Virus record (IMG/VR): IMGVR_UViG_3300009709_000001
Location: 160,001-224,000 of that record
Length of the DNA stretch: 64,000 nt
Reading direction: 5' to 3' (one strand)
DNA from: a virus
Taxonomy: Duplodnaviria; Heunggongvirae; Uroviricota; Caudoviricetes
The notes under the pieces: model-generated
The model's database searches: none
Seen by the model: the letters and a program-made list of their open reading frames with translations, nothing else
What the model was told of the DNA's origin: nothing
Translations under genes and position numbers: made by a program
Shown here: piece by piece, positions 218-15,098 of the stretch
How the letters are laid out: each line of letters starts with the position of its first letter
How positions within the stretch are numbered: position 1 is the stretch's first letter

Positions 218-223
218 GAATTT

Positions 224-1695: not shown

Positions 1696-1707
1696 AATTT
1701 ACCTTAC

Positions 1708-1721
1708 ATTTTTAAAGAACG
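1708..1721 (-). promoter_or_regulatory. boxA-like antitermination element
   Basis: CGTTCTTTAAAAAT (cf. rrn boxA TGCTCTTTAACA), preceded by a small hairpin TGTTGTTAATAACAACA. Confidence 0.55.
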
Positions 1722-1747
1722 TTTGTTGTTATTAACAACATGCCTCT

Positions 1748-1776
1748 AGTTTAACTGTTTGTTAGCGGCATGTCAA
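1748..1776 (-). promoter_or_regulatory. sigma70-type promoter for the large ncRNA
   Basis: TTGACA-17 nt-TAAACT. Confidence 0.8.
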
Positions 1777-1782
1777 CAATTT

Positions 1783-2715: not shown

Positions 2716-3074
2716 TAGGGTGAAAAGCCTTTATTTTTATTCTTCACTTTATTGTCGATATCCCATTTAATGGCTGCTCCGCTAGCGAATTTTTCACCTT
2801 TGCGAAATCTTGCACCATTAACGATAAACTCTTTCAACACTGAATCACCATTCCACCAGCCACGCTGAATATGGATATATCCTTCGGCGCCAAGTTTCTC
2901 TCTCAATGCTTTGAATTCGGGATGATCATCTGATGATATCGATGACCAATAACCCTTACCTTGTAAGACCTTGACGAGATCTTCCTCGGTTGGATTTTCC
3001 TTATCCGTGTAGCAATTCCCGGACTTACGAATAGTCACGCTTGTTAGGGATTCTGGGTTTATGGTAAAGTTCAT
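2715..3074 (-). CDS. hypothetical protein
   Basis: 119-aa ORF, stop overlaps the MazG-like start. Confidence 0.75.
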   Translation of the reverse strand: MNFTINPESLTSVTIRKSGNCYTDKENPTEEDLVKVLQGKGYWSSISSDDHPEFKALREKLGAEGYIHIQRGWWNGDSVLKEFIVNGARFRKGEKFASGAAIKWDIDNKVKNKNKGFSP

Positions 3075-3078
3075 AATA

Positions 3079-3168
3079 TGGCGGATAGTATAGGATTTGA
3101 ACCTATGTGCCCCGAAGGACCCACTCCTTAGCAGGGAGGGACGATTAGCCGGACTCTGTCAACTATCC
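3079..3168 (-). tRNA. tRNA-Ser(GCU)
   Basis: Loop CT-GCT-AA, long variable arm, G73, CCA. Confidence 0.9.
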
Positions 3169-3247
3169 ATGAATTTAGCGGCAATAGGAAGCTAGGGTTC
3201 GCTTTCGGGAATCACCTAACTTGTTCCCCTATTGCCGGGCCCAACAA

Positions 3248-3568
3248 TTATACTTTGTCAGGGTATTGACTGTCAATAAAGTCAATTGCAAGATGTGGAC
3301 TTGTACCTACATCGAGCATCTTGATGTTCTTGAAGCCATTTTCTTCTGTAATGAGTGATTCGTCCGCGCGAATACCACCCTTATACTTGCCGTCACCTTT
3401 CTTGTGCATCAGATTACCTGTTGCGGGATCAATAGAACCCCATTTAGGTGTATGTGCACCTTCGATCGGTTCGACAAAATATGTCTTGCCGGTACGTTGA
3501 GAATATACGATGAAACGACCTGTCTCGTCTGTGTTCGTTAAGAACTTACTGCGAATGTCATTGCTCAT
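3248..3568 (-). CDS. hypothetical phage protein
   Basis: 106-aa ORF with GGGGG SD. Confidence 0.8.
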   Translation of the reverse strand: MSNDIRSKFLTNTDETGRFIVYSQRTGKTYFVEPIEGAHTPKWGSIDPATGNLMHKKGDGKYKGGIRADESLITEENGFKNIKMLDVGTSPHLAIDFIDSQYPDKV

Positions 3569-3594
3569 ATAGCCCCCATGGTTAAAATGTTGTT

Positions 3595-3671
3595 TGGCAA
3601 GCCGTTGGGGACTCGAACCCCAGCCCTTCTGACTCAGAATCAGACCACACTGCCCCTTATGCTACCGGCCA
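3595..3671 (-). tRNA. tRNA-Gln(CUG)
   Basis: Loop TT-CTG-AG, T arm, G73-CCA; acceptor stem weak. Confidence 0.75.
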
Positions 3672-3675
3672 CTTG

Positions 3676-4098
3676 TTAATTTAATTTCTGAGATTTCACG
3701 ATACGACGCATTTCATTCTCAATATCGCGTTTCTTCTCAGATTCTCTCTTATCGTATTCCTTCTTACCCTTTGCAAGTCCAATCTTCAATTTGAACTTAC
3801 CACGCAATGGATAAATCTTCAACGGTATAAGAGTTAGTCCGCGTTCTTGAGTTCTACCCATAACGCGGTTAATTTCTTTCTTGTTCAAAAGCAGTTTTCG
3901 TGTGCGAAGTTGATCATTATCAGCACTTCCCATCGAAGCACCGACTAGATATACTTCACCGTTACGGATGACACAATGTGTGCCGGCAATCGAACACACG
4001 TCCGATGCAATGGCCTTTGCTTCCCATCCTTGCAAAACCATTCCGCTCTCAAATTCTTCAAGAATTTCGTAATCGTGATAAGCTTTCTTATTTTGCAT
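3676..4098 (-). CDS. smpB: SsrA-binding protein SmpB
   Basis: NKKAYHDYEILEEFESG, RTRKLLLNKKEI, TLIPLKIY, GLAKGKKEYDKRE motifs; ATG start at 4098 chosen because the TTG start overlaps a tRNA. Confidence 0.95.
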   Translation of the reverse strand: MQNKKAYHDYEILEEFESGMVLQGWEAKAIASDVCSIAGTHCVIRNGEVYLVGASMGSADNDQLRTRKLLLNKKEINRVMGRTQERGLTLIPLKIYPLRGKFKLKIGLAKGKKEYDKRESEKKRDIENEMRRIVKSQKLN

Positions 4099-4116
4099 TT
4101 CAAAACTCGCTATGTT

Positions 4117-4191
4117 TGGCAAGGGTGGTGAGAATCGAACTCACTAACCGTGGGTCAAAGCCACGTATGCATACCATTGCATATCACCCCA
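4117..4191 (-). tRNA. tRNA-Gln(UUG)
   Basis: Loop CT-TTG-AC, cloverleaf, CCA. Confidence 0.9.
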
Positions 4192-4319
4192 ATTGTAGAT
4201 CTAAACGTATGGCGATCCCCGTGTCACAGGCCGATGCTTTCGCATCGGCCCGGAAGGATTGATTACCTTCATCAGTTCTTACAAACAGAGTTGACGACTC
4301 TCTTCGTACATGCTTATTC

Positions 4320-4394
4320 TGGACCCCCTGCAAGGAATCAAACCTTGACCTGAACGTTCGTAGCGTTCTGTTCTATTCATTGAACTACAGGGAG
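4320..4394 (-). tRNA. tRNA-Arg(ACG)
   Basis: Loop CT-ACG-AA, T-loop variant TTTGATT, CCA. Confidence 0.85.
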
Positions 4395-4843
4395 TTATTC
4401 TTAATCAATATTTTGGATTTTTCTACCATCTCATCTGTGATTGCAATTTTACCGCCATGAATTTTTCTATGACAATTAGAGCAAACCACAATACATTTTT
4501 CAACTTCTTTTAGAATAGTATCTAACGGATATTTTGCAATCATCCCCGAAATATCATATTCTTTACTTTCCGGTTCAAGATGATGAAATTCAATACACTT
4601 TATGTAATCCTCGCCACATACTATGCATGATAGTGTCGATTTCCATCTTAACGCCGATTCTTTATAATTGCGATTTCTTTCACCGACTGCACTAACAATT
4701 TTTTCTCTGTGTAAGCGATAAGAATTTTTAGATGTCTCTCGCCTACAATCATTGCATTGTCCGTGCAGTTGATTTTTAGACCTAGATCTCCATGCATATT
4801 GGTCTAGGTCTTTAGTACACCTACATTTCGAACATACTTTCAT
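4385..4843 (-). CDS. HNH homing endonuclease
   Basis: CxxC pairs, IEFHHL, CIVVCSNCHRKIH; stop codon lies inside tRNA-Arg. Confidence 0.9.
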   Translation of the reverse strand: MKVCSKCRCTKDLDQYAWRSRSKNQLHGQCNDCRRETSKNSYRLHREKIVSAVGERNRNYKESALRWKSTLSCIVCGEDYIKCIEFHHLEPESKEYDISGMIAKYPLDTILKEVEKCIVVCSNCHRKIHGGKIAITDEMVEKSKILIKNNSL

Positions 4844-4893
4844 ATTTATTCCTGCTACGAAGTATATTATATTCGTAGCAAAAATACAGTATT

Positions 4894-4969
4894 TGGTGGA
4901 GCATAGTGGAGTCGAACCACTCTAACCTACCTTATGAGAGTAGTGCATCAGCCGCTCTGCCAATGCTCC
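4894..4969 (-). tRNA. tRNA with CAU anticodon (Met or Ile2)
   Basis: Loop CT-CAT-AA, paired G1-C72, A73. Confidence 0.85.
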
Positions 4970-4987
4970 ATAAATTTTATTCTGATG

Positions 4988-5479
4988 CTAGATTAAACCT
5001 TGCACCTTAGAAAAGTCCGGAATAAACCAATCCGGCATATCTCTATTTTTCCATCCAGCAATATGTTGCTTATGGACGTTGTAATAATTTCTGTAAGATT
5101 GAATGGGATCATCAACCTTAACATCATCAGGCATTGCCAGGCGGAATGGAGTAATACCCTTGCTTTCAATATTCGGATAAGGTAGATTACGAATCACATC
5201 GTAAGCTTTATGATTTACCGAATGCTCATACCTATACATCCATTCGTAATTGAGCGCTTCAGCAAGATCTCTCAACCAAAGCCAATTATCGAGTGACTCA
5301 CGTATCCAAATTGCACTTGGACGATTAACGTGTGTCAGTTTATAGCCTGCATCAATGCCACTAACTCGAACTGCACTACTCAATAGTTGTGCATATTCGG
5401 TAACCATCTTAACCACATGGCGATCAACGTGATATTTAGCGTTGGTCTCGTGATCAGAATCGAGATAAAAAATGTTCAT
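4988..5479 (-). CDS. pyrimidine dimer DNA glycosylase/endonuclease V-like protein, copy 1
   Basis: MNIFYLD...DRHVVKMVTEYAQLLS...YRNYY family signature. Confidence 0.8.
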   Translation of the reverse strand: MNIFYLDSDHETNAKYHVDRHVVKMVTEYAQLLSSAVRVSGIDAGYKLTHVNRPSAIWIRESLDNWLWLRDLAEALNYEWMYRYEHSVNHKAYDVIRNLPYPNIESKGITPFRLAMPDDVKVDDPIQSYRNYYNVHKQHIAGWKNRDMPDWFIPDFSKVQGLI

Positions 5480-5484
5480 GTGCA

Positions 5485-5513
5485 ATTATAACTTACAGAC
5501 TATTTTTTTGCAA
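5485..5513 (-). promoter_or_regulatory. sigma70-type promoter, probably giving a leaderless mRNA
   Basis: TTGCAA-17-TATAAT, 5 nt upstream of the ATG. Confidence 0.65.
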
Positions 5514-5622
5514 TTGAATTTGATTGTACCGCCCTAATGCAATATACCGAAGTAGTAACATATACGTTGACCATAACCTACGGCAGTATCTTAGTTATGA
5601 TGCACTATTTGCAATCGAAACT

Positions 5623-5696
5623 TGGTGCGGGCTAAGGGAATCGAACCCTTGATCTCTCGTTGGCAACGAAAAGTTTTACCATTAAACTAAGCACGC
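5623..5696 (-). tRNA. tRNA-Gly(GCC)
   Basis: Loop TT-GCC-AA; A73 instead of the usual bacterial U73. Confidence 0.85.
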
Positions 5697-5795
5697 GAAT
5701 ATGAATTAAGATAGTTGAAATAGCAAGGACGGAATCGAACCGCAACTACACCATGGCTTGATTATACCCGCTTCAATCAGGCGCTATCTTAAACT

Positions 5796-5886
5796 TGGCG
5801 GAAGTGGACGGATTCGAACCCTCTAACCCATTTCTGAATCAAACAGTTTTCAAGACTGTGCCGCTCTCCTAGACGGTAGCACTTCC
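5796..5886 (-). tRNA. tRNA-Ser(UGA)
   Basis: Loop CT-TGA-AA, long variable region, G73. Confidence 0.9.
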
Positions 5887-5891
5887 ATATT

Positions 5892-5970
5892 TGGTGCCCG
5901 GATAGAGAATCGAACTCTACACTTTTCCACTTGTAAGGAGGATGGCTTCACCAGCTGCAACTCTCCGGGC
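5892..5970 (-). tRNA. tRNA-Val(UAC)
   Basis: Loop CT-TAC-AA, acceptor GCCCGGA/TCCGGGC, CCA. Confidence 0.8.
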
Positions 5971-5982
5971 AATAATTCTATC

Positions 5983-6056
5983 TCACCTCATGTGGGCCCC
6001 GATCCGACGACCCCTATCCTATCGAATAGTGCTCTACCTCTGAGCTAATGTGATGA
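5983..6056 (-). pseudogene. degenerate tRNA (Ile-GAU-like)
   Basis: Intact D arm GCTC-AGAGGTA-GAGC but decayed T loop, acceptor and CCA. Confidence 0.5.
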
Positions 6057-6082
6057 TTTTATGAAACTTTCGTTTCAGTGAT

Positions 6083-6189
6083 TGGTGGAATCTACGGGGT
6101 TCGAACCCGCCACAGGCGCCGCCTGCTACTCCAGATACTCAGTTCAATATGAAATTGTGCACCCAGGATTGAACTTTTCAACAGATCCC
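6083..6189 (-). ncRNA. tRNA-like RNA with G3:U70 acceptor and no D stem
   Basis: GGGATCT/AGATTCC-A-CCA, T arm GCGGG-TTCGAAC-CCCGT, non-cloverleaf interior. Confidence 0.65.
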
Positions 6190-6195
6190 ATAATA

Positions 6196-6270
6196 TGGTG
6201 GACCGCTCAGGTCGCGAACCTGATGTAAGACTGACCGTGACGTTTTAAGCCACATAGCATTTAGCAGCCC
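6196..6270 (-). ncRNA. tRNA-like RNA with G3:U70 acceptor, AAA anticodon-like loop and no D stem
   Basis: GGGCTGC/GCGGTCC-A-CCA; GTGGC-TTAAAAC-GTCAC; T arm TCAGG-TTCGCGA-CCTGA. Confidence 0.65.
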
Positions 6271-6274
6271 GAAT

Positions 6275-6745
6275 TCAAAAAGTAGGAATAAACCAATCCG
6301 GCATATTCCTGTTTGTCCATTTTGCAAGATGTTGCTTGTGAACATTGTAATACTTTCGGTATGCCTGTACAGGATCTTCGTCCCTTACATCATCTGGCAT
6401 AGCCAATCTAAACGGTGTAATACCTTTAGATTCAATATTCGGTACAGGTAGAGACTGTATCACATTAAAAGCCTTATGATTTTCGCTGTGATCATATCTA
6501 TACATATATTCGTAGTTGAGTTCTGTTGCCAGCTCTCTCAACCACAACCAATTATCTTGTGACTCCCTTGTCCAAATTGCACAAGGATGATTCTGATGCG
6601 TAATTTTATAGCCTGCATCAACGCCTGTCAATCTCACCGCTGTACTCAAAAGTTGAGCATATTCGGTAACCATTTTGACCACATGCCTGTCGACATGGGC
6701 CTTGGCGCATTCGTGTAAATCGTTATCTAGATAAAAGATATTCAT
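6275..6745 (-). CDS. pyrimidine dimer DNA glycosylase/endonuclease V-like protein, copy 2
   Basis: Close paralogue of 4988..5479 with HQNHPC motif. Confidence 0.8.
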   Translation of the reverse strand: MNIFYLDNDLHECAKAHVDRHVVKMVTEYAQLLSTAVRLTGVDAGYKITHQNHPCAIWTRESQDNWLWLRELATELNYEYMYRYDHSENHKAFNVIQSLPVPNIESKGITPFRLAMPDDVRDEDPVQAYRKYYNVHKQHLAKWTNRNMPDWFIPTF

Positions 6746-6757
6746 TTTTCTTATTAT

Positions 6758-6835
6758 TGGTGCCCCGGGAGGGATTCGAACCCACACTGTACGGTTTCTA
6801 AAACCGGTGCCTCCTACCTATTGCGCTACCTGGGC
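6758..6835 (-). tRNA. tRNA-Leu(UAG), short variable loop
   Basis: Loop TT-TAG-AA, A73, CCA. Confidence 0.85.
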
Positions 6836-6836
6836 A

Positions 6837-7280
6837 TTATTTCTTGACTGCAACCATAATTACGGCACAGCCTGATGTATTGTCTTCAAGGACCATGGAA
6901 TGAATTTTCTTATGGTTAAATTCATAAACGTGATTTAGTGATACTACTGCTTCTTCATCTTCGGCAGTAATGATGCTTGTACCCTTCGGTAGTACCACGG
7001 GTATCACAAAAGTGCGCGGTTCAAACACATTGGGATCTAATAAGTCCGTATGTGGCTCAGCACCCTTGCACACGCTAAAATATACAAAATCCAGGCGGTT
7101 TTTGTCAACTCCCACAACGGTTGCGATCCGATCCATCAAAAGTGAATCGGCGCTGCTGACAGCATGGACCTGGAATTTCTTCGGTGTATTTGTTTTGTAA
7201 CTCTGGAGCTTAATGCTTTCGGCATTAATCGCAATTTGTTCCGGGACATCAATAATACCGTGACAAACAATCTTATCCAT
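6837..7280 (-). CDS. putative 2OG-Fe(II)/cupin-fold oxygenase
   Basis: PHTD (HxD) and distal IHSM His in a beta-rich pattern. Confidence 0.5.
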   Translation of the reverse strand: MDKIVCHGIIDVPEQIAINAESIKLQSYKTNTPKKFQVHAVSSADSLLMDRIATVVGVDKNRLDFVYFSVCKGAEPHTDLLDPNVFEPRTFVIPVVLPKGTSIITAEDEEAVVSLNHVYEFNHKKIHSMVLEDNTSGCAVIMVAVKK

Positions 7281-7295
7281 AGATTACTTTCATTT

Positions 7296-7372
7296 TGGAG
7301 ACTCTGGTGAGAATCGAACTCACTCTTTGAACTGTTTTGCAGACAGTTGCCTTCCCAATCGACCACAGAGCC
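7296..7372 (-). tRNA. tRNA-Cys(GCA)
   Basis: Loop CT-GCA-AA, U73. Confidence 0.9.
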
Positions 7373-7383
7373 ATTGAATTTGA

Positions 7384-7457
7384 TGGGTTGAACCGGGGAA
7401 TCGAACCCTCGCCTACTGTTTCACAGACAGTCTTGCTACCACTACACTAGGAACAAC
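7384..7457 (-). tRNA. tRNA-His(GUG)
   Basis: Loop CT-GTG-AA, G-1:C73; imperfect acceptor and T stems. Confidence 0.75.
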
Positions 7458-7471
7458 ATCGAAATTAAAAA

Positions 7472-7589
7472 CAGGTTCGCAATTTATATCCTACCATTAG
7501 ACGACAGTAGCGACCAACTCTACCGCTGGGATTCGAACCCAGATCTTCTTTTTTACAGAAAGATTATTATTTATTGCTGAAACGAACCT
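7472..7589 (-). ncRNA. circularly permuted tRNA-like RNA carrying the CAGCAA module (Y RNA/YrlA-like architecture)
   Basis: Order 5'-3': AGGTTCG-TTTCAGCAA, anticodon arm (GTA), T arm, loop-closed acceptor, D arm, CGAACCTG. Confidence 0.7.
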
Positions 7590-7604
7590 AAAGTCGAAAT
7601 AAGT

Positions 7605-7707
7605 CAGGATGGGTGACTGATGGCCGGGAGTCGAACCCTATGTCACTGGCCCCAATGGCCTGGCCCGCAAAGTTTTGGCTGCGTGAATTGCTTGCTGCAA
7701 TCATCCT
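7605..7707 (-). ncRNA. CAGCAA-module RNA with T-loop
   Basis: AGGATG-ATTGCAGCAA...GGG-TTCGACT-CCC...CATCCTG. Confidence 0.6.
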
Positions 7708-7716
7708 TTAGAAATT

Positions 7717-7793
7717 TGGTTCCCATGGTCGGATTCGAACCGACACTGAACAGTGTTTGAAACTGCTGACTCTACCGATTGGCCTACATGGGC
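7717..7793 (-). tRNA. tRNA-Leu(CAA), short variable loop
   Basis: Loop TT-CAA-AC, A73. Confidence 0.85.
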
Positions 7794-7802
7794 ATCGAAT
7801 AC

Positions 7803-8006
7803 TTACTTGGCTGGTGCATCCGGAATGTTATCGCAAACACCAGTCTGAGTGCATCTATAATCGACACATTCTCTCAACTTTGGATCGGCCTGGCACTTCT
7901 TATCAAATTCGGCCTTTTCGACCTGAGCTGGCGTTGGTTCGCCGCAAGCTGTTAACCCTGCAATAAAACCAAGTGATAGAAGAACTGTAAAAATTACCTT
8001 TGTCAT
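7803..8006 (-). CDS. small lipoprotein
   Basis: Hydrophobic signal peptide with LTAC lipobox; Cys-rich; ATAAATA motif upstream. Confidence 0.75.
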   Translation of the reverse strand: MTKVIFTVLLSLGFIAGLTACGEPTPAQVEKAEFDKKCQADPKLRECVDYRCTQTGVCDNIPDAPAK

Positions 8007-8092
8007 AATTATCTCCGTTGTGTAGTTTGTCTATTGGACAAACTATTTATGATGCTTTTCTTACTATTTTGAAAAATAGTAAAATCTAATAT

Positions 8093-8168
8093 TGGCCGGC
8101 TAGGAACGACTCGAACGCTCAACCTTTGGTTTTGGAGACCACTGCGCTGCCAATTGCGCTACTAACCG
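8093..8168 (-). tRNA. tRNA-Trp(CCA)
   Basis: Loop CT-CCA-AA, G73. Confidence 0.9.
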
Positions 8169-8175
8169 AAATTAT

Positions 8176-8250
8176 AGGTGCCGAGACTGGACTTAAAGAT
8201 TACAGAAAGGGCCAGTCCGTCCGGCGGTTGCTGAAGTGCAGTAACCTTTC
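8176..8250 (-). ncRNA. CAGCAA-module RNA variant
   Basis: AGGTTAC...TTCAGCAA followed by GCCGG..GACTGG/CCAGTC.CGGC stem. Confidence 0.45.
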
Positions 8251-8261
8251 TTACTAAATTA

Positions 8262-8338
8262 TGGCAGGGCGGGAGAGATTCGAACTCTCAACGTGCAATT
8301 TTGGAGACTGCTGTTTTACCAATTGAAACTACCGACCT
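8262..8338 (-). tRNA. tRNA-Trp(CCA), second copy
   Basis: Loop CT-CCA-AA, G73. Confidence 0.9.
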
Positions 8339-8347
8339 ATCGAAATT

Positions 8348-8423
8348 TGGCTCCGTGTGAACGATTCGAACGCTCCTCACCTGGTTAACAGCCAGGGGTA
8401 CTCACCAAGAATACGAACACGGA
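8348..8423 (-). tRNA. tRNA-Asn(GUU)
   Basis: Loop CT-GTT-AA. Confidence 0.9.
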
Positions 8424-8437
8424 ATTATTTTATATTA

Positions 8438-8516
8438 TGGAGCGGGCAGGGAGAATCGAACTCCGCGAGCTACGGTGTGGAAGACCGTTGTGCGCCCTTT
8501 GCACTAGTCAACCCGC
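8438..8516 (-). tRNA. tRNA-Gly(UCC), atypical D region
   Basis: Loop CT-TCC-AC, U73; 5' half overlapped by the HNH reading frame. Confidence 0.75.
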
Positions 8517-8913
8517 CTTTAATTAATGCACCTCTTCCTCGGCCCTTATTCTTAGAGCCGTAGAATTCGGTTTGTGTATGGCAATTTGGACATAGAAGAG
8601 TTAAATTATCTTCGTTATTATTCCGGCTATTACCGTCAATATGTTCCAATTGTAATGTCAGGGATTTACCATTCCAGGTATTGCCTTGTCTACATGACTG
8701 GCAAGTGTCATTAAACTTTTCAAGAATATATCGCCTAATAAACGAACTAGTCTGTGTCTCACCCTTTAGGCCATTTTCTAATCCGTTTTTCCAACGATCT
8801 ATATATTCATTATATTGATGTGTATGTTGGCACAGATGCCCACAGAATTTATTCTTCTTGTTGGAGGCTTTCTTTACACCAATTCCACAACAAAGGCAAA
8901 CATAAATAGACAT
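8470..8913 (-). CDS. HNH homing endonuclease
   Basis: CQSC...LQLEHIDGNSRNN...LLCPNCH. Confidence 0.9.
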   Translation of the reverse strand: MSIYVCLCCGIGVKKASNKKNKFCGHLCQHTHQYNEYIDRWKNGLENGLKGETQTSSFIRRYILEKFNDTCQSCRQGNTWNGKSLTLQLEHIDGNSRNNNEDNLTLLCPNCHTQTEFYGSKNKGRGRGALIKGGLTSAKGAQRSSTP

Positions 8914-9088
8914 AACGCGATCTCCTGTTATGATTATTTATGATCGCGTGGTTATTCGTGCCACGCATTTATGAATCGGCGTCTGACTTCCGATACTTAA
9001 AGATAGCACCGGCATTTCATCCGGTTTGCATGATCAAGGCCTGGCTATCTATGTTATGTTCTTGCGGGGGCCGTAGCCCCCGGCTTGT

Positions 9089-10120
9089 TTAGACCGTTGC
9101 AGCGGACCAGATCATCAGGTTCGTACCTTCGGTCAGCTTGCGGTTGACGGAAGTCGACTGGACGAAGATGTCGTACTGGCCATGTGCACCAGGAGCAACC
9201 TTGCAGTCACCCACATGCGGGAGGCCGAGCATGTCACGAGCAGAGAAACCACTGTAGACAGAACCGGACTTCTTGTCACGGATTGCGATCTGCTTGTAGT
9301 CCTGGACCGTTTCGGTCTTGGCCAGCTGATAGAAAGCGCAACCCTTCGTGAACGTCACACCTTGTGCTTGCACGAAATCGCGAATTTGCACGCCGTCGTT
9401 CACAGCGTCGACGCGATACACGTCAACTTCCTGCGAAATGTCCACCAGTGCAGCCTTGACTTCTGCCACCGAAACCTTGCTCAGGTCGGTGTAGAACTTG
9501 TCAGTAGAGCCAACACCTGCGGAACGTGCAGCATAGAAGCCCTTGAACGCAGCCTTGGTAGACGCAGTCGAAGCAGCCATGCCGCGCTGGGTTTGCTCCC
9601 ATTCCTGGATGTTGCCTGCGGGGATACCGTAGCGCACCAGTGTGGCTGCATCACCCTTCGGGACACGGAACACGAATGTCCAACGGTCGGTGGCTTGCAG
9701 TTGCTTGATCATTGCGCCGATCTGCGGACCGGAATACTTCACGCTGGCGTTCTCGCCACCGTCGGTAGTCACAAAGACCAGGAACGAAACTTCGGGATCA
9801 GCACCGTCCGGTGCAGCCTGCAGTTGCTCGATCAGGGAGCCAACAGCGTCGAACAGCGGCGTACCGCGGCCTTCTGCTGTGTAATCAGCCTCGGCAATGG
9901 GGGCCAGGGCGATGATCGAAGAATTCGAAACCACAGTACGAACATCGCTGGTGCGACCGTAACCGAGTTCAACAACCGACACGATAGTGTCGATGCCGTA
10001 TGCCACGGCTTCTTCCTTGATAGCTGCGATGCTGTCGTTGTAATCACGTGCGGCGTGACGAGCAATACCGCTCATCGAGCCGGAGTGATCTCGGGCAAAG
10101 CCGAAGTAATTCTTCTTCAT
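9089..10120 (-). CDS. von Willebrand factor A (MIDAS) domain protein
   Basis: DHSGS, TPLFDA, TTDG MIDAS motifs; visibly GC-richer than its neighbours. Confidence 0.85.
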   Translation of the reverse strand: MKKNYFGFARDHSGSMSGIARHAARDYNDSIAAIKEEAVAYGIDTIVSVVELGYGRTSDVRTVVSNSSIIALAPIAEADYTAEGRGTPLFDAVGSLIEQLQAAPDGADPEVSFLVFVTTDGGENASVKYSGPQIGAMIKQLQATDRWTFVFRVPKGDAATLVRYGIPAGNIQEWEQTQRGMAASTASTKAAFKGFYAARSAGVGSTDKFYTDLSKVSVAEVKAALVDISQEVDVYRVDAVNDGVQIRDFVQAQGVTFTKGCAFYQLAKTETVQDYKQIAIRDKKSGSVYSGFSARDMLGLPHVGDCKVAPGAHGQYDIFVQSTSVNRKLTEGTNLMIWSAATV

Positions 10121-10165
10121 AAATGCCTTTCTGTGTGTACGTCACAATTAACGTTTACAGGACTA

Positions 10166-10194
10166 ACTATATAAGTATGTCAAATTTTTGTCAA
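10166..10194 (-). promoter_or_regulatory. sigma70-type promoter for the vWA gene
   Basis: TTGACA-17-TATAGT. Confidence 0.75.
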
Positions 10195-10218
10195 CTGATT
10201 TTTATCAATTGATTTTTA

Positions 10219-10339
10219 TGGTTCCGCCCCAGGGAATCGAACCCCGTCTACTTCCTTATCATGGAATTTGAATTTATTGCTGAACGTATCCTTGGCAGGA
10301 TCACCTCGTTTAAGCATGCTACCGTTACATCAAAGCGGA
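10219..10339 (-). ncRNA. tRNA(GAU)-like RNA with the CAGCAA module inserted between D and anticodon arms
   Basis: TCCGCTT/GGGCGGA-A-CCA, D and T arms intact, insert ATCCTG-CCA-AGGATAC-GTTCAGCAA, hairpin TTCC-ATGATAA-GGAA. Confidence 0.7.
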
Positions 10340-10344
10340 ATTGT

Positions 10345-10437
10345 TGGTGCCAGAATTAGATATACCGATAGCGATCGTCTTTCCAGCATAGAAAATGGAG
10401 CAAGATACGTGATATAATCTAGTGATTCGTACCCGGC
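10345..10437 (-). ncRNA. rod-like RNA ending in ACCA
   Basis: GCCGGG/TCTGGC-A-CCA closing a long irregular hairpin; no T loop. Confidence 0.45.
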
Positions 10438-10443
10438 ACTGAA

Positions 10444-10505
10444 TGGCGCCACGTCTAATCCAACGTATACGGCTATAAGACCAGTTAGTTACGCAGGGAC
10501 ACGGC
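10444..10505 (-). ncRNA. 62-nt mini tRNA-like RNA
   Basis: GCCGTGT/ACGTGGC-G-CCA acceptor, no canonical D or T arms. Confidence 0.45.
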
Positions 10506-10511
10506 ATTGAT

Positions 10512-10587
10512 TGGTGGGTTCGCCCAGCATCGAACTGGGATCTCGCTGCTTAAGAGGCAGGACTCTAGCCAATTGAGTTACAAACCC
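10512..10587 (-). tRNA. tRNA-Lys(CUU)
   Basis: Loop CT-CTT-AA. Confidence 0.9.
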
Positions 10588-11429
10588 GTAACTTGTGATT
10601 TTGTTTCTATTCCTAATGCGGCAAATTGTGCCCTTATCTCGGTATTCACCATCGAATAATACTTTTTGGTATTGATTAAATGGCGGAGAAGCATGTGTCC
10701 GTCAATCTCTGGCGGTGTTTCATGATCCTCGATAGAAACGTTTGCGTAATGTTTCAACGCATTTGCATTGTTTCGGAACAGTAAATCAGTTCCAATTATG
10801 TCTGTCGACCAATGCATATTCAATTGCACTGATGGATTCTGGACATAATCATCTAGAAAATCTATAACATTGAAGTAAGACTTCATGTGTCCCACATTAT
10901 CATGGGCATAGATACAATGCTTTCTTGATAGCCAGTTCGTAAACTGACTAACATCAAATTCGTGTTCTCCACCAATTACCTTCAAATAAGGTGTAGTTAG
11001 GTTCAGAGAATGATAGGGTACATCAGCAGATGTAAGGATTGCAGGAATAGATCCGCCCGAATCAGCGAATACAACAGTTTTCTTTGTTGTACCATTGGTA
11101 TATAACTTCTCGTTCAGTATGTTTGCAATACCGAAGAAGGAATCACATACACCCATAATTCCGAGATAATTTGCAATGTAGACACCATGGTCTCTATTTG
11201 CATCTCTAATTGAAACTACGTTTACATGCTGACCTAGTTTATTGAAAAAGTGCTTCTTCCAAAAAACAAGAGTTCTTGCAATGCTCGAAGTAGTTGGGCC
11301 ACCTAGGCCATTAAACTGAATAAAAGTGACAGGCGATCTATCGCTAAAGTCAAATCCTATTCCATTTTCATGAATAAAAACTTGATCTGTTGATCTTCCG
11401 TAATTAATAGTTTCCGATGTATATGACAT
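10578..11429 (-). CDS. hypothetical protein, possible alpha/beta-hydrolase fold
   Basis: 283-aa ORF; VVFADSGG resembles a nucleophile elbow; stop lies inside tRNA-Lys. Confidence 0.6.
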   Translation of the reverse strand: MSYTSETINYGRSTDQVFIHENGIGFDFSDRSPVTFIQFNGLGGPTTSSIARTLVFWKKHFFNKLGQHVNVVSIRDANRDHGVYIANYLGIMGVCDSFFGIANILNEKLYTNGTTKKTVVFADSGGSIPAILTSADVPYHSLNLTTPYLKVIGGEHEFDVSQFTNWLSRKHCIYAHDNVGHMKSYFNVIDFLDDYVQNPSVQLNMHWSTDIIGTDLLFRNNANALKHYANVSIEDHETPPEIDGHMLLRHLINTKKYYSMVNTEIRAQFAALGIETKSQVTGL

Positions 11430-11436
11430 CGACTAT

Positions 11437-11727
11437 TTAGTACGGAAATTCATACCCGTATTCAGAAAGGTATCTTCGTGCCTTTCTCATAACTTCCTCA
11501 CTAGGCTGAACTTTCTTAAATCCAGTCCTTAGAATATAGAAATCTTCGCAATCGTTGTCAAATAACTCTATGTAATATAAATCGCCGCTGGTTAAACCTG
11601 CATGCGAATTACATACAAATAATGCCTTCTTGGCATTCGATGCGATGCGTACAACTTCTTCGCATTCGCCCGAAAGCGACCAGTCATATCGATAATTATC
11701 AGATACGTCGATAAAAAAAGGTTTCAT
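11437..11727 (-). CDS. hypothetical protein
   Basis: 96-aa ORF filling the gap between tRNAs. Confidence 0.65.
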   Translation of the reverse strand: MKPFFIDVSDNYRYDWSLSGECEEVVRIASNAKKALFVCNSHAGLTSGDLYYIELFDNDCEDFYILRTGFKKVQPSEEVMRKARRYLSEYGYEFPY

Positions 11728-11731
11728 ATCT

Positions 11732-11806
11732 TGGTACCCCTGACGGGATTCGAACCCGCCTGAGTAGGTTGAAAGCCTACGGACCTCACCAGAAGTCGAC
11801 AGGGGC
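11732..11806 (-). tRNA. tRNA-Glu(UUC)
   Basis: Loop CT-TTC-AA. Confidence 0.9.
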
Positions 11807-11812
11807 AGTGTT

Positions 11813-11898
11813 TGGTACCCTGTGGGGGATTCGAACCCCAGCCCTTTTGGGCATCACCTTGAAAGGGTGAGGACCGTTGCCAGCAGTCGACACAGGAT
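11813..11898 (-). tRNA. tRNA with UUC (Glu) anticodon and long variable arm
   Basis: Loop CT-TTC-AA; variable hairpin GCCC-AAAA-GGGC; A73. Confidence 0.75.
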
Positions 11899-11899
11899 A

Positions 11900-11973
11900 T
11901 GGTAGCTCCAACAAGAATCGAACTTGTGAGACCCGGTTATCGGCCGAGGATTATACCACTTAATTATGGAGCC
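11900..11973 (-). tRNA. tRNA-Ile(GAU)
   Basis: Loop CC-GAT-AA (C33 rather than U33). Confidence 0.85.
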
Positions 11974-12185
11974 ATTGATTGTTCGTATTGAATTAATTCC
12001 TGAATTATTTCGTCTCTATCAAAACTTCTTATGAAGTATGCATCTTCTGGGCTTATAGTACCCGGTTGATAATATCCGAATTTAATCAGAAAATCCATAG
12101 GAAGATGCCTAATCCTAAAATAGATATTATCTGTTCTAGGGATGTTATATTTCAGAGAGACATATAATTCGTCAATTTCATTCAT
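11964..12185 (-). CDS. hypothetical protein
   Basis: 73-aa ORF, stop inside tRNA-Ile. Confidence 0.55.
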   Translation of the reverse strand: MNEIDELYVSLKYNIPRTDNIYFRIRHLPMDFLIKFGYYQPGTISPEDAYFIRSFDRDEIIQELIQYEQSMAP

Positions 12186-12191
12186 AATATT

Positions 12192-12266
12192 TGGTTGCCA
12201 CGGTCAGGATCGAACTGACGACTCTTGCCTTATCAAGACACTACTCTACCACTGAGTTACGCGGCA
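12192..12266 (-). tRNA. tRNA-Ile(GAU), second copy
   Basis: Loop TT-GAT-AA. Confidence 0.9.
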
Positions 12267-12370
12267 ATAAATTCAAACGTGTTGCAGCTCATCTGCAATA
12301 CGGACAGCTATTGTAGTCACTGTCAAAACTAGATTGATAAAAATAAGTTCCATTTTATTTCTTTGTTAGT

Positions 12371-12449
12371 TGGTCGGGGATGCAGGATTCGAACCTGCGA
12401 CCTCTCACTTCCAAGGCGAGCCGTCTGACCTGACTGACAATAATCCCCG
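12371..12449 (-). tRNA. tRNA-Pro(UGG)
   Basis: Loop CT-TGG-AA, C1-G72, A73. Confidence 0.9.
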
Positions 12450-12512
12450 ATATTAGATAGTGCTGCCGGCTTCCATAACCGGTGGAATCTCATTCCCTAT
12501 ATCTAACGTTTT

Positions 12513-12588
12513 TGGTGCCGGCTAGAGGAATCGAACCCCTGACCTTCTGACTACAAAACAGTTGCTCTACCTACTGAGCTAAACCGGC
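12513..12588 (-). tRNA. tRNA-Thr(UGU)
   Basis: Loop TT-TGT-AG. Confidence 0.9.
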
Positions 12589-12598
12589 ATAATAAATT

Positions 12599-12653
12599 CA
12601 GAGTACGCTTTTTTCACCAATTGAAAGTAGTTTAAATTTGCTGAATGTACTCT
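12599..12653 (-). ncRNA. minimal CAGCAA-module RNA
   Basis: AGAGTAC-ATTCAGCAA...TTTCA-ATTGG-TGAAA...GTACTCTG. Confidence 0.6.
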
Positions 12654-12663
12654 TTAGAAAGCA

Positions 12664-12738
12664 TGGCGCCTCGTAGGGGAATCGAACCCCTTTGATCCGT
12701 TAGACAGACGGGCATAATAACCAGTATATGAACGAGGC
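12664..12738 (-). tRNA. tRNA-Asp(GUC)
   Basis: Loop CT-GTC-TA, G73. Confidence 0.9.
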
Positions 12739-12745
12739 AAAGATT

Positions 12746-12943
12746 TTAGTAATCGCTATAGATAATGTACCAGGATTCCTCTAATGGAGAAATTTCAATA
12801 CGAATAAGCTGAGATCGCATTACACCAGAATAGCGAAAGATGTAATCTTTCTCGTATTGTGGCATGTATCCAGAAGCAGCTTCAATACTAAAGTTCTGTG
12901 CTTCTTTTCTAAATTCAGCTGACCAAGGTACTTTTCGTTCCAT
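12746..12943 (-). CDS. hypothetical protein
   Basis: 65-aa ORF between RNA genes. Confidence 0.5.
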   Translation of the reverse strand: MERKVPWSAEFRKEAQNFSIEAASGYMPQYEKDYIFRYSGVMRSQLIRIEISPLEESWYIIYSDY

Positions 12944-12962
12944 AGCTTTATTTTGATTTAAT

Positions 12963-13016
12963 CAGTGTTCTTATTTTCAATTACAAGTTGAATTTTTAAT
13001 TTGCTGAACGAACACT
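12963..13016 (-). ncRNA. minimal CAGCAA-module RNA with UGU anticodon-like hairpin
   Basis: AGTGTTC-GTTCAGCAA...TTCAA-CTTGTAA-TTGAA...GAACACTG. Confidence 0.6.
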
Positions 13017-13023
13017 TTAGAAT

Positions 13024-13283
13024 TGGATTTAATGAGAAGACTCGAACTTCCACTGCCGGCTTAAATCGCGTATGCTGGGTACCGGAGTGCTACCTAGAAA
13101 AACTTCGAGTAATAATTCTTGATATGTCTAGTTTACCTTTTCTTGCTCTCGACCTGTTCCGCACTTCCCGGACTCACAGTGTTTGGTTTTAAAGCCTACG
13201 CGATTGTTATCGATTACATTACTTGGATACGTTCAATACCTGTCCTTAAGACCGTACTAATTTTTCCATTACACTACATTAAA
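13024..13283 (-). ncRNA. 260-nt tRNA-framed RNA with a ~190-nt structured insert replacing the anticodon loop
   Basis: TTTAATG/CATTAAA-T-CCA acceptor, T arm GGAAG-TTCGAGT-CTTCT, internal helices AATCGCGTA/TACGCGATT and CCGGGAAGTGC/GCACTCCGG. Confidence 0.65.
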
Positions 13284-13285
13284 AC

Positions 13286-13361
13286 TGGTGCCAAGGACTG
13301 GATTCGAACCAGTGACGCATAACTTTTCAGGCTACCGCTCTACCGCTGGAGCTACCCTGGC
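13286..13361 (-). tRNA. tRNA-Phe(GAA)
   Basis: Loop CT-GAA-AA. Confidence 0.9.
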
Positions 13362-13371
13362 ATGAAATTAT

Positions 13372-13446
13372 TGGTGGACCGTAGCGGAGTCGAACCGCTT
13401 TCATCGACGTGCAAGGCCGAGGTAATATCCCGTATACGAACAGCCC
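13372..13446 (-). tRNA. tRNA-Ala(UGC)
   Basis: Loop CT-TGC-AC, G3:U70. Confidence 0.85.
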
Positions 13447-13454
13447 AATAATTT

Positions 13455-13544
13455 TGGTGGACAATGCAAGAATCGAACTTGCACCTTGCCCCTATGCTAT
13501 TAGGGACTTTCAAATCAGCTGCAGATCATATCCCCAGCTTGTCC
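13455..13544 (-). ncRNA. non-canonical tRNA-like RNA (6-bp acceptor and 6-bp T stem)
   Basis: GGACAA/TTGTCC-A-CCA; TGCAAG-TTCGATT-CTTGCA; three internal hairpins. Confidence 0.55.
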
Positions 13545-13618
13545 AAATTGTCCAAATTGTTGTCCACCGACCGTCGGTGTGGACTCTAGAATGCTCTTGT
13601 GACTGCATTTCCAGGATT

Positions 13619-13695
13619 TGGTGGACACATTGGGGAATCGAACCCCAGACATCCTACTTGCAAGGCAGGCGTTCTCCCAACTGAACTAATGGCCC
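13619..13695 (-). tRNA. tRNA-Ala(UGC), second copy
   Basis: Loop CT-TGC-AA, G3:U70, bulged acceptor. Confidence 0.85.
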
Positions 13696-13907
13696 ATGAA
13701 ATTGGAGATAAGTGTGGCATATCGGTCGTTCCACAAGCTTTCGCATTACCCCTGCCTCTACTATCATCACCGGCGTGACTACCCTACTGGATGTAATGCA
13801 CTTTACTTACTCCGCTACCTGCTTCCGCGGTAGCATATAACTATTTGCAGTTGCAATTTTGACATAACTATTTAGCTTTGTCAACTGGCTTTGCAACTAC
13901 TTGAAAA

Positions 13908-13997
13908 TGGTGGACCGTAATAGATTTGAACTACTGAAGCTCCTTGGAGCGCCGTCGTCAAATGACGGTGGGTTTGTCCGCTTCCCCTAACGGGTCC
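13908..13997 (-). tRNA. type II tRNA-like gene with UUG anticodon
   Basis: CCGTC-ATTTGAC-GACGG, variable hairpin GCTCCAAGGAGC, bulged acceptor, A73. Confidence 0.6.
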
Positions 13998-14003
13998 GTA
14001 AAA

Positions 14004-14092
14004 TGGCGGGGCCTGATAGATTTGAACTACCGTGATCTTAAAGATAGTCGATTTTGGAGGTCGACCGGGTTCGCCCGCTTCCCTAAGTCCCC
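14004..14092 (-). tRNA. type II tRNA-like gene with CCA centred in a 9-nt anticodon loop
   Basis: GTCGA-CCTCCAAAA-TCGAC, long variable arm, G73. Confidence 0.6.
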
Positions 14093-14098
14093 ATTGAT

Positions 14099-14186
14099 TG
14101 GTGTGTACTGAAGGAATCGAACCTCTTGCCTACCTCCCACCTTATTTAGGCCACTGTTTTACAGACAGCGAGCGGGGACAGCACAC
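14099..14186 (-). tRNA. D-armless tRNA-Tyr(GUA)-like gene
   Basis: GCTGT-CTGTAAA-ACAGT, 26-nt variable region, D arm replaced by GTCCCCGCTC. Confidence 0.65.
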
Positions 14187-14407
14187 ATATATTCATTGTA
14201 AGCACTTCTTACGAAATGCCTATGGTAAAGAACACAAAAATTATCACTTTTATGCTCTTTACCATCCGGTTCTGACTCTCCACGTTATCGCCGCAGATTT
14301 TATACCCCGAACACGCCCTTTTGCCGGATGTTTTTTACAGTGCCCGACGAGGAACTCGTTTCCTCATATTTCACACTTTCCAAACGTTGCCTCTATTACC
14401 AAGGTCA

Positions 14408-14438
14408 ACAAAAAAGCCGCTTAGTTTCCTAGCGGCTT
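14408..14438 (-). terminator. intrinsic terminator of the putative attenuator
   Basis: AAGCCGCTAG-GAAA-CTAAGCGGCTT then TTTTGTT. Confidence 0.85.
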
Positions 14439-14464
14439 CCTCTTGTAAAAATTCTGGATACTTT

Positions 14465-14620
14465 TTATTTGTGTCCAGACTCCTTATAACAGGAAGCCAT
14501 CCTAATCGGATCTTGGTCGAGATTACTCGCATTAAATCCGAACCAATAACCGGCGCAGATGCGTTCAGCGGTGTTCAACACCTCTGTATGCATTGTCGAT
14601 TTAATGGACGAATTAAACAT
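14465..14620 (-). CDS. putative attenuator leader peptide (51 aa, contains all 20 amino acids)
   Basis: MFNSSIKSTMHTEVLNTAERICAGYWFGFNASNLDQDPIRMASCYKESGHK; below the ORF-track size cut-off; its 3' end overlaps the antiterminator. Confidence 0.7.
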   Translation of the reverse strand: MFNSSIKSTMHTEVLNTAERICAGYWFGFNASNLDQDPIRMASCYKESGHK

Positions 14621-14699
14621 TTCGTAATCCAAAAATTAAGGTTAAGCTACTTTGCACGACACCAATTGTCATACAAGTTTATTTATCATCTAAGCCGCA

Positions 14700-14728
14700 A
14701 GTTTAACAGTTTATAGTTAATCTGTCAA
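14700..14728 (-). promoter_or_regulatory. sigma70 promoter (proximal) of the tRNA array
   Basis: TTGACA-17-TAAACT, followed by GATAAATA. Confidence 0.85.
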
Positions 14729-14789
14729 GTAATCAAGTTATCTTCTGAAAACAGATATATCACTTGCGTACATTTATTTATCTTCTGCA

Positions 14790-14818
14790 AGTTTAACACT
14801 ATTTCAAAACGGTGTCAA
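14790..14818 (-). promoter_or_regulatory. sigma70 promoter (middle) of the tRNA array
   Basis: TTGACA-17-TAAACT, followed by GATAAATA. Confidence 0.85.
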
Positions 14819-14867
14819 TCTTGGCAGTTTTTGCAAGATTTGCGTTTAGCAACTCTGCATGTGACTA

Positions 14868-14896
14868 ATTGTATGCTAATTTAGTTAAGGTGTCAA
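14868..14896 (-). promoter_or_regulatory. sigma70 promoter (distal) of the tRNA array
   Basis: TTGACA-17-TACAAT. Confidence 0.8.
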
Positions 14897-15098
14897 GCCC
14901 CAATCTTTTATGCTTGAATGTAAAGTTTTCTTCTGTCATCACCATAAACAGCACACGAAATTATTTATCAGGGAGACCGTATAGACCGGGGCGTATCGTC
15001 GTCGCAGTTGGCACTACGAAACTTTATCTATTGTTAACCCATATAGGCCTGTGATGGTTCTAATTTTGCGCTATATTTATATTAGTTGTCAAATGCAC

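Follow-up and report, generated by a model that had tools for sequence, protein, structure and literature searches.

Why would a phage encode two RNAs that each contain all the arms of a tRNA, each carry the same additional module, and differ in where the tRNA is opened? The question is raised by a window of 64,000 nucleotides, bases 160,001-224,000 of a phage record (IMGVR_UViG_3300009709_000001) that is complete at 385,394 bp and has terminal repeats. In this window the two RNA genes lie on the minus strand at 7472-7596 (RNA1, including its 5′ leader) and 10219-10339 (RNA2). Unless genome positions are given, coordinates are those of the window, where all features described are on the minus strand. 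The explanation that we favor, with a probability of roughly two in three on the analyses below, is that one phage Y-RNA-like family includes both RNA1 and RNA2, as different topological forms, and that in this family the shared module, here termed the handle, would be bound by a Ro60-like protein and the tRNA body displayed.

RNA1 is a circularly permuted tRNA-like RNA with the anticodon GUA. Read from 7589 to 7472, it runs from the 5′ strand of the handle through UUCAGCAA, an A/U-rich linker, the anticodon arm, AGAU and the T arm to a 6-bp acceptor closed by AGUUGGUCG, followed by UC, the D arm, AUAUAAAUUG, CGAACCU and G, with no CCA. The handle is closed by the 5′ strand AGGUUCG(U) (AGGUUCGU, 7582-7589), which pairs with 7472-7479, where the alignment places the 3′ strand CGAACCU (7479-7473) and a conserved 3′ G; the handle motif UUCAGCAA (7574-7581) follows the 5′ strand directly. 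Within the tRNA-like part, the anticodon arm UCUUU-CUGUAAA-AAAGA (7547-7563) has a 5-bp stem and presents GUA at 7554-7556, the T arm is CUGGG-UUCGAAU-CCCAG (7526-7542), and the acceptor-like hairpin CGGUAG/CUACUG (7505-7525) consists of 6 bp, then G.A at position 1-72, around a 9-nt loop. The D arm, GUCU-AAUGGUA-GGAU (7488-7502), is placed by the alignment and by an un-permutation test with ARAGORN, which makes no call on native RNA1 and calls tRNA-Tyr(GUA) once the sequence is un-permuted.

This fold is supported by covariation. Synechococcus phage BUCT-ZZ01 holds a homologue of RNA1 with compensatory changes in the closing stem, the acceptor and the D stem, and with the anticodon GGA. Across 32 RNA1-type sequences, 95.1% of cells are paired versus 81.1% in column shuffles (0 of 500 reach the observed value), pairing falls to 43-52% when partners are slid, and 18 pairs vary on both sides, all six acceptor pairs among them. 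Three pairs of the T arm, which is 100% paired, also vary on both sides, as do pairs 17/135, 19/133 and 20/132 of the closing stem (alignment A3); the anticodon stem covaries, and the motif UUCAGCAA is invariant in 32/32 homologues. In the anticodon arm of these sequences U33 and A37-A38 are almost fixed (0.2 bits), while the anticodon columns, at 1.3, 2.0 and 1.1 bits, are the most variable of the arm, giving 14 triplets in 32 sequences on a near-constant body.

The sealed acceptor of RNA1 is also held from outside. Its 5′ leader CGAC (7596-7593) pairs with GUCG of the acceptor loop (7514-7511), and this pairing covaries in relatives as GACCA/UGGUC, UACCU/AGGUA, AUCCC/GGGAU and AUACCAA/UUGGUAU. 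At least 4 contiguous pairs form in every RNA1-type sequence, with a mean of 5.2 bp versus 3.0 for shuffled loops; the cross-pairing control is unclean because most variants share a GACC core, and the claim is carried by the shuffled-loop control and five divergent variants. The leader/loop helix ties the sealed acceptor into the fold, which argues that RNA1 is not meant for opening.

RNA2 is a CCA-ending, tRNA-Ile(GAU)-like RNA with the handle, closed as a hairpin, at position 26/27. From 10339 to 10219 it comprises a 7-bp acceptor, UG, the D arm, G26, a 48-nt insert, the anticodon arm, the variable loop, the T arm, the acceptor 3′ strand, A73 and CCA. The insert (10267-10314) is the handle, consisting of an A-rich strand, the hairpin AUCCU-GCCA-AGGAU (10288-10301), ACG, UUCAGCAA (10277-10284) and an A/U-rich linker; on inspection it yielded neither a bulge-helix-bulge nor a group I intron reading. 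Its removal converts an RNA on which ARAGORN makes no call into a tRNA-Ile(GAU) call. The anticodon arm UUCC-AUGAUAA-GGAA (10252-10266, with GAU at 10258-10260) is placed by this call and by relatives, and the acceptor 3′ strand GGGCGGA, with discriminator A and encoded CCA (10219-10229), by acceptor changes in relatives, which are compensatory in viral record L100 and in BUCT-ZZ01. A covarying 7-bp acceptor, a base at position 73 and an encoded CCA are common to the RNA2-type members (RNA2, L100, BUCT-ZZ01 copy 1, L113, L081, L092 and L093, with others by eye), and the stem of the closed-handle hairpin covaries over at least 11 different sequences, its loop nearly always starting with the G that follows the stem in open handles. 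Across relatives, the frame UUCC-AU-NNN-AA-GGAA carries GAU, CAU, GAC, GUC, UCG and UUC. Native RNA1 and RNA2 have no match to the Rfam tRNA model (RF00005), which accepts the two closed-handle tRNAs of BUCT-ZZ01 with scores of 37.6 and 50.7 bits. RNA1 and RNA2 also share a 13-mer, UUCAGCAAUAAAU, of which the window and the 385-kb genome alike contain exactly two copies, one per RNA.

The preliminary description of this locus had read 7472-7589 as a loop-closed, permuted tRNA flanked by the two halves of the module, and 10219-10339 as a normal tRNA with the module at the D/anticodon junction, and this architecture is borne out on the minus strand down to the GCCA loop of RNA2 and the missing CCA of RNA1. 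Its proposal that the two RNAs open the same circle at different points stands as well and holds for the handle family, not for this pair only. ARAGORN calls tRNAs only after un-permuting the one and excising the insert of the other. The further suggestion that one form may be chargeable and the other not fits the anatomy as read from sequence, because RNA2-type members have a 7-bp acceptor and CCA, whereas RNA1-type members have 6 bp, no CCA and a leader-tied loop.

The handle recurs in a large RNA family. It consists of a stem of 7-8 bp, a single spacer base, UUCNGCAA and an A/U-rich linker, and, on the far side of the cargo, an A-rich return strand and a 3′ G. Over 214 distinct open-handle members in the DNA sampled, the consensus opens with a 5′ flank rich in U and a 7-bp stem that begins A-G-G, continues with a single spacer base and NNCNGCAA, then an A/U-rich linker, the cargo, five or six A's and the 3′ strand ending C-C-U, and closes with G-U-U; the search fixed the stem start, the motif's C and GCAA, and the G that follows the stem, and left all other positions free. 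The stem lies one base from the motif in 204 of these members, and the motif, NNC-N-GCAA overall, is most often UUCAGCAA (107), followed by UACAGCAA (44), AACAGCAA (15) and UGCAGCAA (14). Family counts are limited to full-consensus members because the handle descriptor has a background of ~0.2-0.3 hits per kb. A separate pattern scan of viral contigs, for UUCAGCAA, a gap of 20-48 nt and a T loop, returned at least 119 stretches, mostly true relatives. In T4, stable RNAs C and D have no handle, and with the descriptor the tRNA region yields 0 hits. On records L003 and L004, Rfam found nothing but ordinary tRNAs. Two candidates, L053 1068-1190 (plus strand) and L111, were rejected as handle RNAs, being tRNA-like genes with an insert of ~55 nt inside the anticodon loop instead.

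What the handle carries varies widely. The cargo may be a bare anticodon-type hairpin, a T/D elbow, an RNA1-type permuted tRNA, a permuted tRNA with a 7-bp acceptor, discriminator, encoded CCA and short spacer, a normally ordered tRNA body in which the acceptor stem is swapped for the handle stem, or a 212-nt RNA, and whole-tRNA cargo comes in three topologies. The open-handle permuted tRNAs with a 7-bp acceptor, discriminator and CCA (L095, L036, L087, L088, L029 at 4733-4854, and L039/L147) have a spacer of 3-17 nt, and RNase P together with 3′ trimming could convert them to two-piece chargeable tRNAs joined by the handle. A closing stem in the place of the acceptor, with normal D-anticodon-T order, is seen at L142 450-550, L139 471-567, L152 2811-2907 and L147 3260-3356 (all minus strand).

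Further handle RNAs lie in the window. Beside RNA1, a third (7605-7707) has the stem AGGAUG/CAUCCU + G, the motif UUGCAGCAA, an anticodon-arm-like hairpin, a further hairpin, and a T-loop hairpin inside a GUGAC/GUCAC stem; its L100 homologue carries compensatory changes in the closing stem and the inner hairpin. Two mini handle RNAs share UUCAGCAA: one (12599-12653) joins the stem AGAGUAC/GUACUCU + G to the hairpin UUUCA-AUUGG-UGAAA, a cargo found also in L026 and in mycobacteriophage Chaser, and the other (12963-13016) joins AGUGUUC/GAACACU + G to the bare anticodon-type hairpin UUCAA-CUUGUAA-UUGAA (UGU). Chaser also has an open-handle RNA with the arm UUCC-AUGAUAA-GGA, which is likewise the cargo of the closed-handle RNA2. 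The mini handle RNAs of this phage have common flanks, UUUCUAA before the stem (12,654-12,660 and 13,017-13,023; genome 158,521-158,527 and 159,526-159,532) and GAUUUAAU or GAAUUUAU after it, and these could be processing signals. A possible further copy of the handle (8203-8253), AGAAAGG/CCUUUCU + G with CUUCAGCAA, has atypical spacing and is overlapped by a competing long hairpin, GCCGGACGGACUGG/CCAGUCUCGGC.

The family is linked to a protein gene. About 33 kb before the window, at 125,897-127,306 on the minus strand of the genome, lies the gene for a protein of 469 amino acids with the domains DUF2828 and DUF7788, ~1.1 kb downstream of three handle RNAs (genome 128,427-129,334, minus strand, outside the window), one of which has a YrlA-like core without an anticodon arm and another a 212-nt cargo of unknown kind. 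The arrangement recurs in other phages: in Felix O1, a 471-residue 'RNA-binding protein' (DUF2828 + DUF7788) is encoded just upstream of a tRNA cluster with four handle RNAs, in BUCT-ZZ01 the DUF2828/DUF7788 protein gene is flanked by handle RNAs and the two closed-handle tRNAs, and in Chaser a gene annotated 'Ro-like RNA binding protein' is followed by three handle RNAs. Among the matches listed, DUF7788 is present in 54 of the 99 viral records that hold the scanned pattern. Of the 16 records with a completeness of 90% or more, 15 have it, and the exception, L053, is a complete 95-kb phage with a false pattern match. Pattern and domain occur together even on fragments of 5-7 kb; as background, 711 of 50,697 isolate phage records (1.4%) encode a DUF2828/DUF7788 protein. 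Within 1.5 kb of 29 Ro60-like genes there are 104 handle-descriptor hits versus 24 in shuffles, and ~19 of the 29 loci are clear by eye.

The Ro60 identity of this protein comes from a fold search, with PDB sequence searches being suggestive. An AlphaFold2 model built with 25 homologues (predicted local distance difference test, 88; predicted template modeling score, 0.89) finds as its 13 best PDB matches only Ro60/TROVE proteins, from Xenopus, human, Deinococcus (Rsr) and Thermus phage phiLo, with full-length template modeling scores of up to 0.64; isolated vWA domains come next in the ranking. On this predicted structure, the phage DUF2828/DUF7788 protein has the Ro60 fold. In PHROGs it belongs to phrog_850, 'RNA-binding protein'.

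On these grounds, the handle would be the docking site of the phage Ro60-like protein and would present tRNA-derived cargo; known Ro60 partners share its plan of a 5′-3′ stem flanking an internal loop with a motif (Chen et al., 2014, PMC4201824; PMC12135203). In RNA1, the handle bears the 5′ and 3′ ends, and the sealed, leader-tied acceptor would make the RNA a non-chargeable tRNA mimic; in RNA2, the closed-hairpin handle is inserted where the D and anticodon arms meet, and the body retains its free 7-bp acceptor and CCA. Both display a canonical anticodon loop in which the triplet varies freely among related phages. By analogy with Ro60/Y-RNA particles, the cargo may recruit or titrate tRNA-binding host factors, of which anticodon-specific ones would suit the variable anticodon, and the particle may act in counter-defense or RNA surveillance. 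That the cargo engages anticodon-specific host factors in a counter-defense role is the guess we favor, given the free anticodon in a canonical loop, and it is a tentative one. Also speculative is a programmable particle, in which the handle would make any tRNA body cargo of the Ro60-like protein. According to its anticodon, each copy would capture or blunt one anticodon-specific host factor (for example, an anticodon nuclease, modification enzyme or synthetase), or else capture a tRNA whose anticodon is complementary, and RNA2 would even be aminoacylated while bound. A Ro60-like protein has been placed in counter-defense in Bas63 (Felixounavirus), where gp130, encoded just upstream of the tRNA cluster, counters the Ppl defense, and where the authors guess that some 'tRNAs' of the cluster are Y RNAs (bioRxiv 10.1101/2024.10.10.617714).

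Several observations weigh against a phage Y-RNA-like family. Pfam TROVE has no match anywhere in the genome, and RNA1 and RNA2 lie ~40 kb from the Ro60-like gene, which only their sister copies adjoin. The co-occurrence control consists of isolate phages in general rather than of tRNA-rich large phages. The handle motif UUCNGCAA is of the GCAA type, in contrast to GNCGAA in YrlA and CGAA in Yrl RNAs. Finally, gp130 by itself, whether supplied on a plasmid or by T7, a phage without such RNAs, restores plaquing on Ppl (bioRxiv 10.1101/2024.10.10.617714), and therefore at least the anti-Ppl activity of this putative member of the DUF2828/DUF7788 family needs no phage handle RNAs.

The same features can be read without a protein partner, with the handle as a processing or stability cassette, for example a pseudo-acceptor stem with a discriminator-like G, where cleavage by RNase P, RNase Z or RNase E would release and protect small RNAs of the tRNA-cluster transcript. 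Such a cassette would suit the 7-bp stem with its preceding U run and the G and U-rich sequence after it, the head-to-tail units with short spacers, and the members, such as L142 and L152, whose tRNA body is in normal order but has the closing stem literally in place of its acceptor stem. It leaves unexplained, however, the invariant UUCNGCAA at a fixed distance, the closed hairpin inside RNA2 and the tight linkage to the Ro60-like gene, and we consider it unlikely; a processing or stability role can coexist with docking of a Ro60-like protein.

A role in translation, in which RNA2 and the CCA-plus-spacer members are charged and decode with the handle attached and the RNA1-type are inactive derivatives, is quite unlikely. 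The 7-bp acceptors of RNA2-type members covary and their CCA is encoded, and by E. coli identity rules the discriminator suits the anticodon in the handful of cases read (G73 with GUC three times, A73 with GAU, GAC and UCG), but one member pairs CAU with G73, and native RNA2 is accepted by neither ARAGORN nor the Rfam tRNA model. The 48-nt arm at 26/27 sits, moreover, where the D and anticodon stems stack. From the contacts between ribosome and tRNA, an arm at this place likely clashes, and its bulk probably keeps RNA2 off the ribosome. Decoding would also be redundant with normal tRNAs, as the genome has an ordinary class-II tRNA-Tyr(GUA) at 159,536-159,621 and two tRNA-Ile(GAU) (ARAGORN calls), and so RNA1 and RNA2 are not needed for a complete decoding set.

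Splicing offers another route to working tRNAs. The gene of RNA1 would be a genuine permuted tRNA gene and that of RNA2 would contain an intron, and cleavage and ligation through a circle, as in Cyanidioschyzon merolae, would yield tRNA-Tyr and tRNA-Ile. Both RNAs indeed have all four tRNA arms and, once repaired in silico, score as tRNAs, and some open-handle RNAs, such as those of L095, L036, L087, L088 and L029, have a 7-bp acceptor, a discriminator, an encoded CCA and a short spacer. What speaks against it is that the closing helix is a plain 7-8 bp helix with no bulge-helix-bulge, that the handle sequence is kept far beyond the needs of a spacer, and that it flanks bare hairpins and non-tRNA cargo, where splicing would produce a tiny circle. 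RNA1 itself lacks CCA, its 6-bp acceptor has G.A at 1-72, and the acceptor loop pairs with the leader; the products would duplicate the ordinary tRNA-Tyr(GUA) and the two tRNA-Ile(GAU) already in the genome; and the anticodon changes freely on a constant body. The splicing route is thus very unlikely, and the circular or ligated intermediate that had been suggested for the two RNAs finds no support, with no bulge-helix-bulge and with the handle conserved both open and closed and also on bare hairpins and non-tRNA cargo. That RNA1 and RNA2 are decayed tRNA pseudogenes sharing the 13-mer by chance or as a recombination remnant, a reading to which their rejection by standard tRNA finders might point, is barely credible in view of the compensatory changes that hundreds of homologues show in each of the helices and of an exact common 13-mer that would not be expected by chance.

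RNA1 and RNA2 belong to a minus-strand cluster in the first 15 kb of the window, which contains 29 tRNAs (ARAGORN) and a GOLLD RNA; ARAGORN makes 54 tRNA calls and that of a permuted transfer-messenger RNA (tmRNA) in the whole genome. The GOLLD RNA is full-length (815-1233, 212 bits to Rfam RF02032) and lies at the downstream end of the cluster. Between RNA2 and an HNH gene, an open reading frame of 343 amino acids (9089-10120) forms a GC island, at 55-58% versus ~40% around it. Its product has an N-terminal DxSGSM, a motif resembling the metal-ion-dependent adhesion site, and matches phrog_26613 (unknown function) with no Pfam match; despite the DxSGSM, comparison with the Ro60-like protein gave no relation, and it was rejected as a relative. 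A tRNA-like gene at 8441-8517 with CCA and the anticodon loop CUUCCAC (UCC) is unusual in its D region, where 7 nt separate the acceptor from a GUGC/GCAC stem; ARAGORN makes no call on it, and its sole Rfam match, to tRNA-Sec, is weak at 28.9 bits. Outside the window, ARAGORN finds a tRNA with the anticodon CUA, an amber reader labeled Pyl (genome 144,387-144,463, minus strand), and the permuted two-piece tmRNA, with a 24-residue tag (genome 149,048-149,415, minus strand); BUCT-ZZ01 likewise has both a CUA tRNA and a tmRNA of the permuted type.

Animals, bacteria and a few phages are known to have Ro60/Y-RNA particles, and the role of the tRNA-like part in bacterial Y RNAs is still open. Handle RNAs are a likely RNA partner for a large protein family of unknown function, DUF2828/DUF7788, whose phages include Felix O1-like, Listeria, Staphylococcus, Campylobacter and mycobacterial phages. 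They present tRNA mimicry at its most explicit, with complete tRNAs in three topologies, one of them CCA-ended, and with the anticodon under diversifying change, and the question of why Y RNAs mimic tRNA becomes directly testable in tractable phages (Felix O1, Bas63 and Chaser). They also account for many 'gaps' and odd tRNA calls in phage tRNA clusters, as tRNA finders miss their genes or could label them intron-bearing or pseudo-tRNAs. If the particle were in fact programmable by anticodon, it would be a viral RNA-guided system directed against the host tRNA pool or tRNA-directed defenses.

How do these RNAs compare with known systems? The permuted tRNA genes of C. merolae, and of some green algae and archaea, give rise to normal tRNAs through a cut at a bulge-helix-bulge, a circular intermediate and end trimming. 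RNA1 resembles them in that its 3′ half precedes its 5′ half, all arms are present and a short loop joins the acceptor strands. In contrast, its break falls at 26/27, with a conserved handle at the junction, a 6-bp acceptor and no CCA, and its termini pair without a break over 7-8 bp (98% of cells paired) in place of a bulge-helix-bulge; it also lacks a trimmable 7-bp acceptor, which some other members of the handle family have. The two-piece tmRNAs of permuted ssrA genes likewise have a permuted tRNA-like domain with acceptor strands joined by a loop in the primary transcript, and some handle RNAs elsewhere share the CCA plus spacer, but handle RNAs have no mRNA-like part or tag, and RNA1 has no CCA. 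With Rfam, applied to window positions 1-15,000 at gathering thresholds and at E ≤ 5, RNA1 and RNA2 match no known self-cleaving ribozyme family and nothing beyond a chance-level match to Dictyostelium Class I RNA (RF01414). The latter also has a short terminal stem followed by a CAGCAA-containing motif, and three handle RNAs of the window, at 12,599-12,653, 12,963-13,016 and 7540-7588, match it weakly (21.9-26 bits versus a gathering threshold of 41.5); with scores so far below gathering, this is a resemblance only. Within Rfam and the literature searched, whose coverage stops short of the phage RNA list in the supplements of Chen et al. (2014), no family or paper describes the UUCNGCAA handle, its closed form in CCA-tRNAs or the variable anticodon.

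The closest relatives in plan are the bacterial and phage Y RNAs. YrlA RNAs are encoded beside Ro60, have a conserved GNCGAA motif near the 5′ end (in full, GNCGAAN0-1G), and contain T, closed acceptor-like and D stem-loops; among them, only the 7-bp acceptor of M. smegmatis YrlA is cleaved by RNase P and acquires CCA (Chen et al., 2014, PMC4201824). In Yrl1 and Yrl2 of the Thermus phage phiLo, a 5′-3′ stem flanks an internal loop with CGAA, and a complex with host PNPase is described (PMC12135203); a survey of jumbo phages notes TROVE proteins 'with a tRNA-like partner' (PMC7824862). The YrlA comparison made in the preliminary description pointed in the right direction: the loop-closed acceptor is real, the anticodon arm is retained, and the module proves to be the handle of a family linked to a Ro60-like protein. 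Handle RNAs share with YrlA and Yrl RNAs the terminal stem of paired ends beside an internal loop with a short conserved motif, a remainder that mimics tRNA, with T arm, loop-closed acceptor and D arm in the case of RNA1, and genes that occur in several copies per genome and are linked to a ring-plus-vWA protein of Ro60 fold. The Rfam YrlA model (RF02553) has no match to RNA1 or RNA2 at E ≤ 5; it does match the sister handle RNA at genome 128,427-128,544 with 41.9 bits (E 3e-7), below the gathering threshold of 69 bits, and this match covers only the tRNA-like core (model positions 24-84), not the flanks. The differences lie in the putative partner, which here is a DUF2828/DUF7788 protein without a Pfam TROVE match, and in the RNAs: handle RNAs keep a complete anticodon arm with a hypervariable triplet, RNA2 has the tRNA arms with an open acceptor and CCA, and the handle is found closed in CCA-ending tRNAs as well as on bare anticodon hairpins. 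The particle proposed here would be of the known Ro60/Y-RNA type, with an explicit, permutable tRNA cargo on a UUCNGCAA handle.

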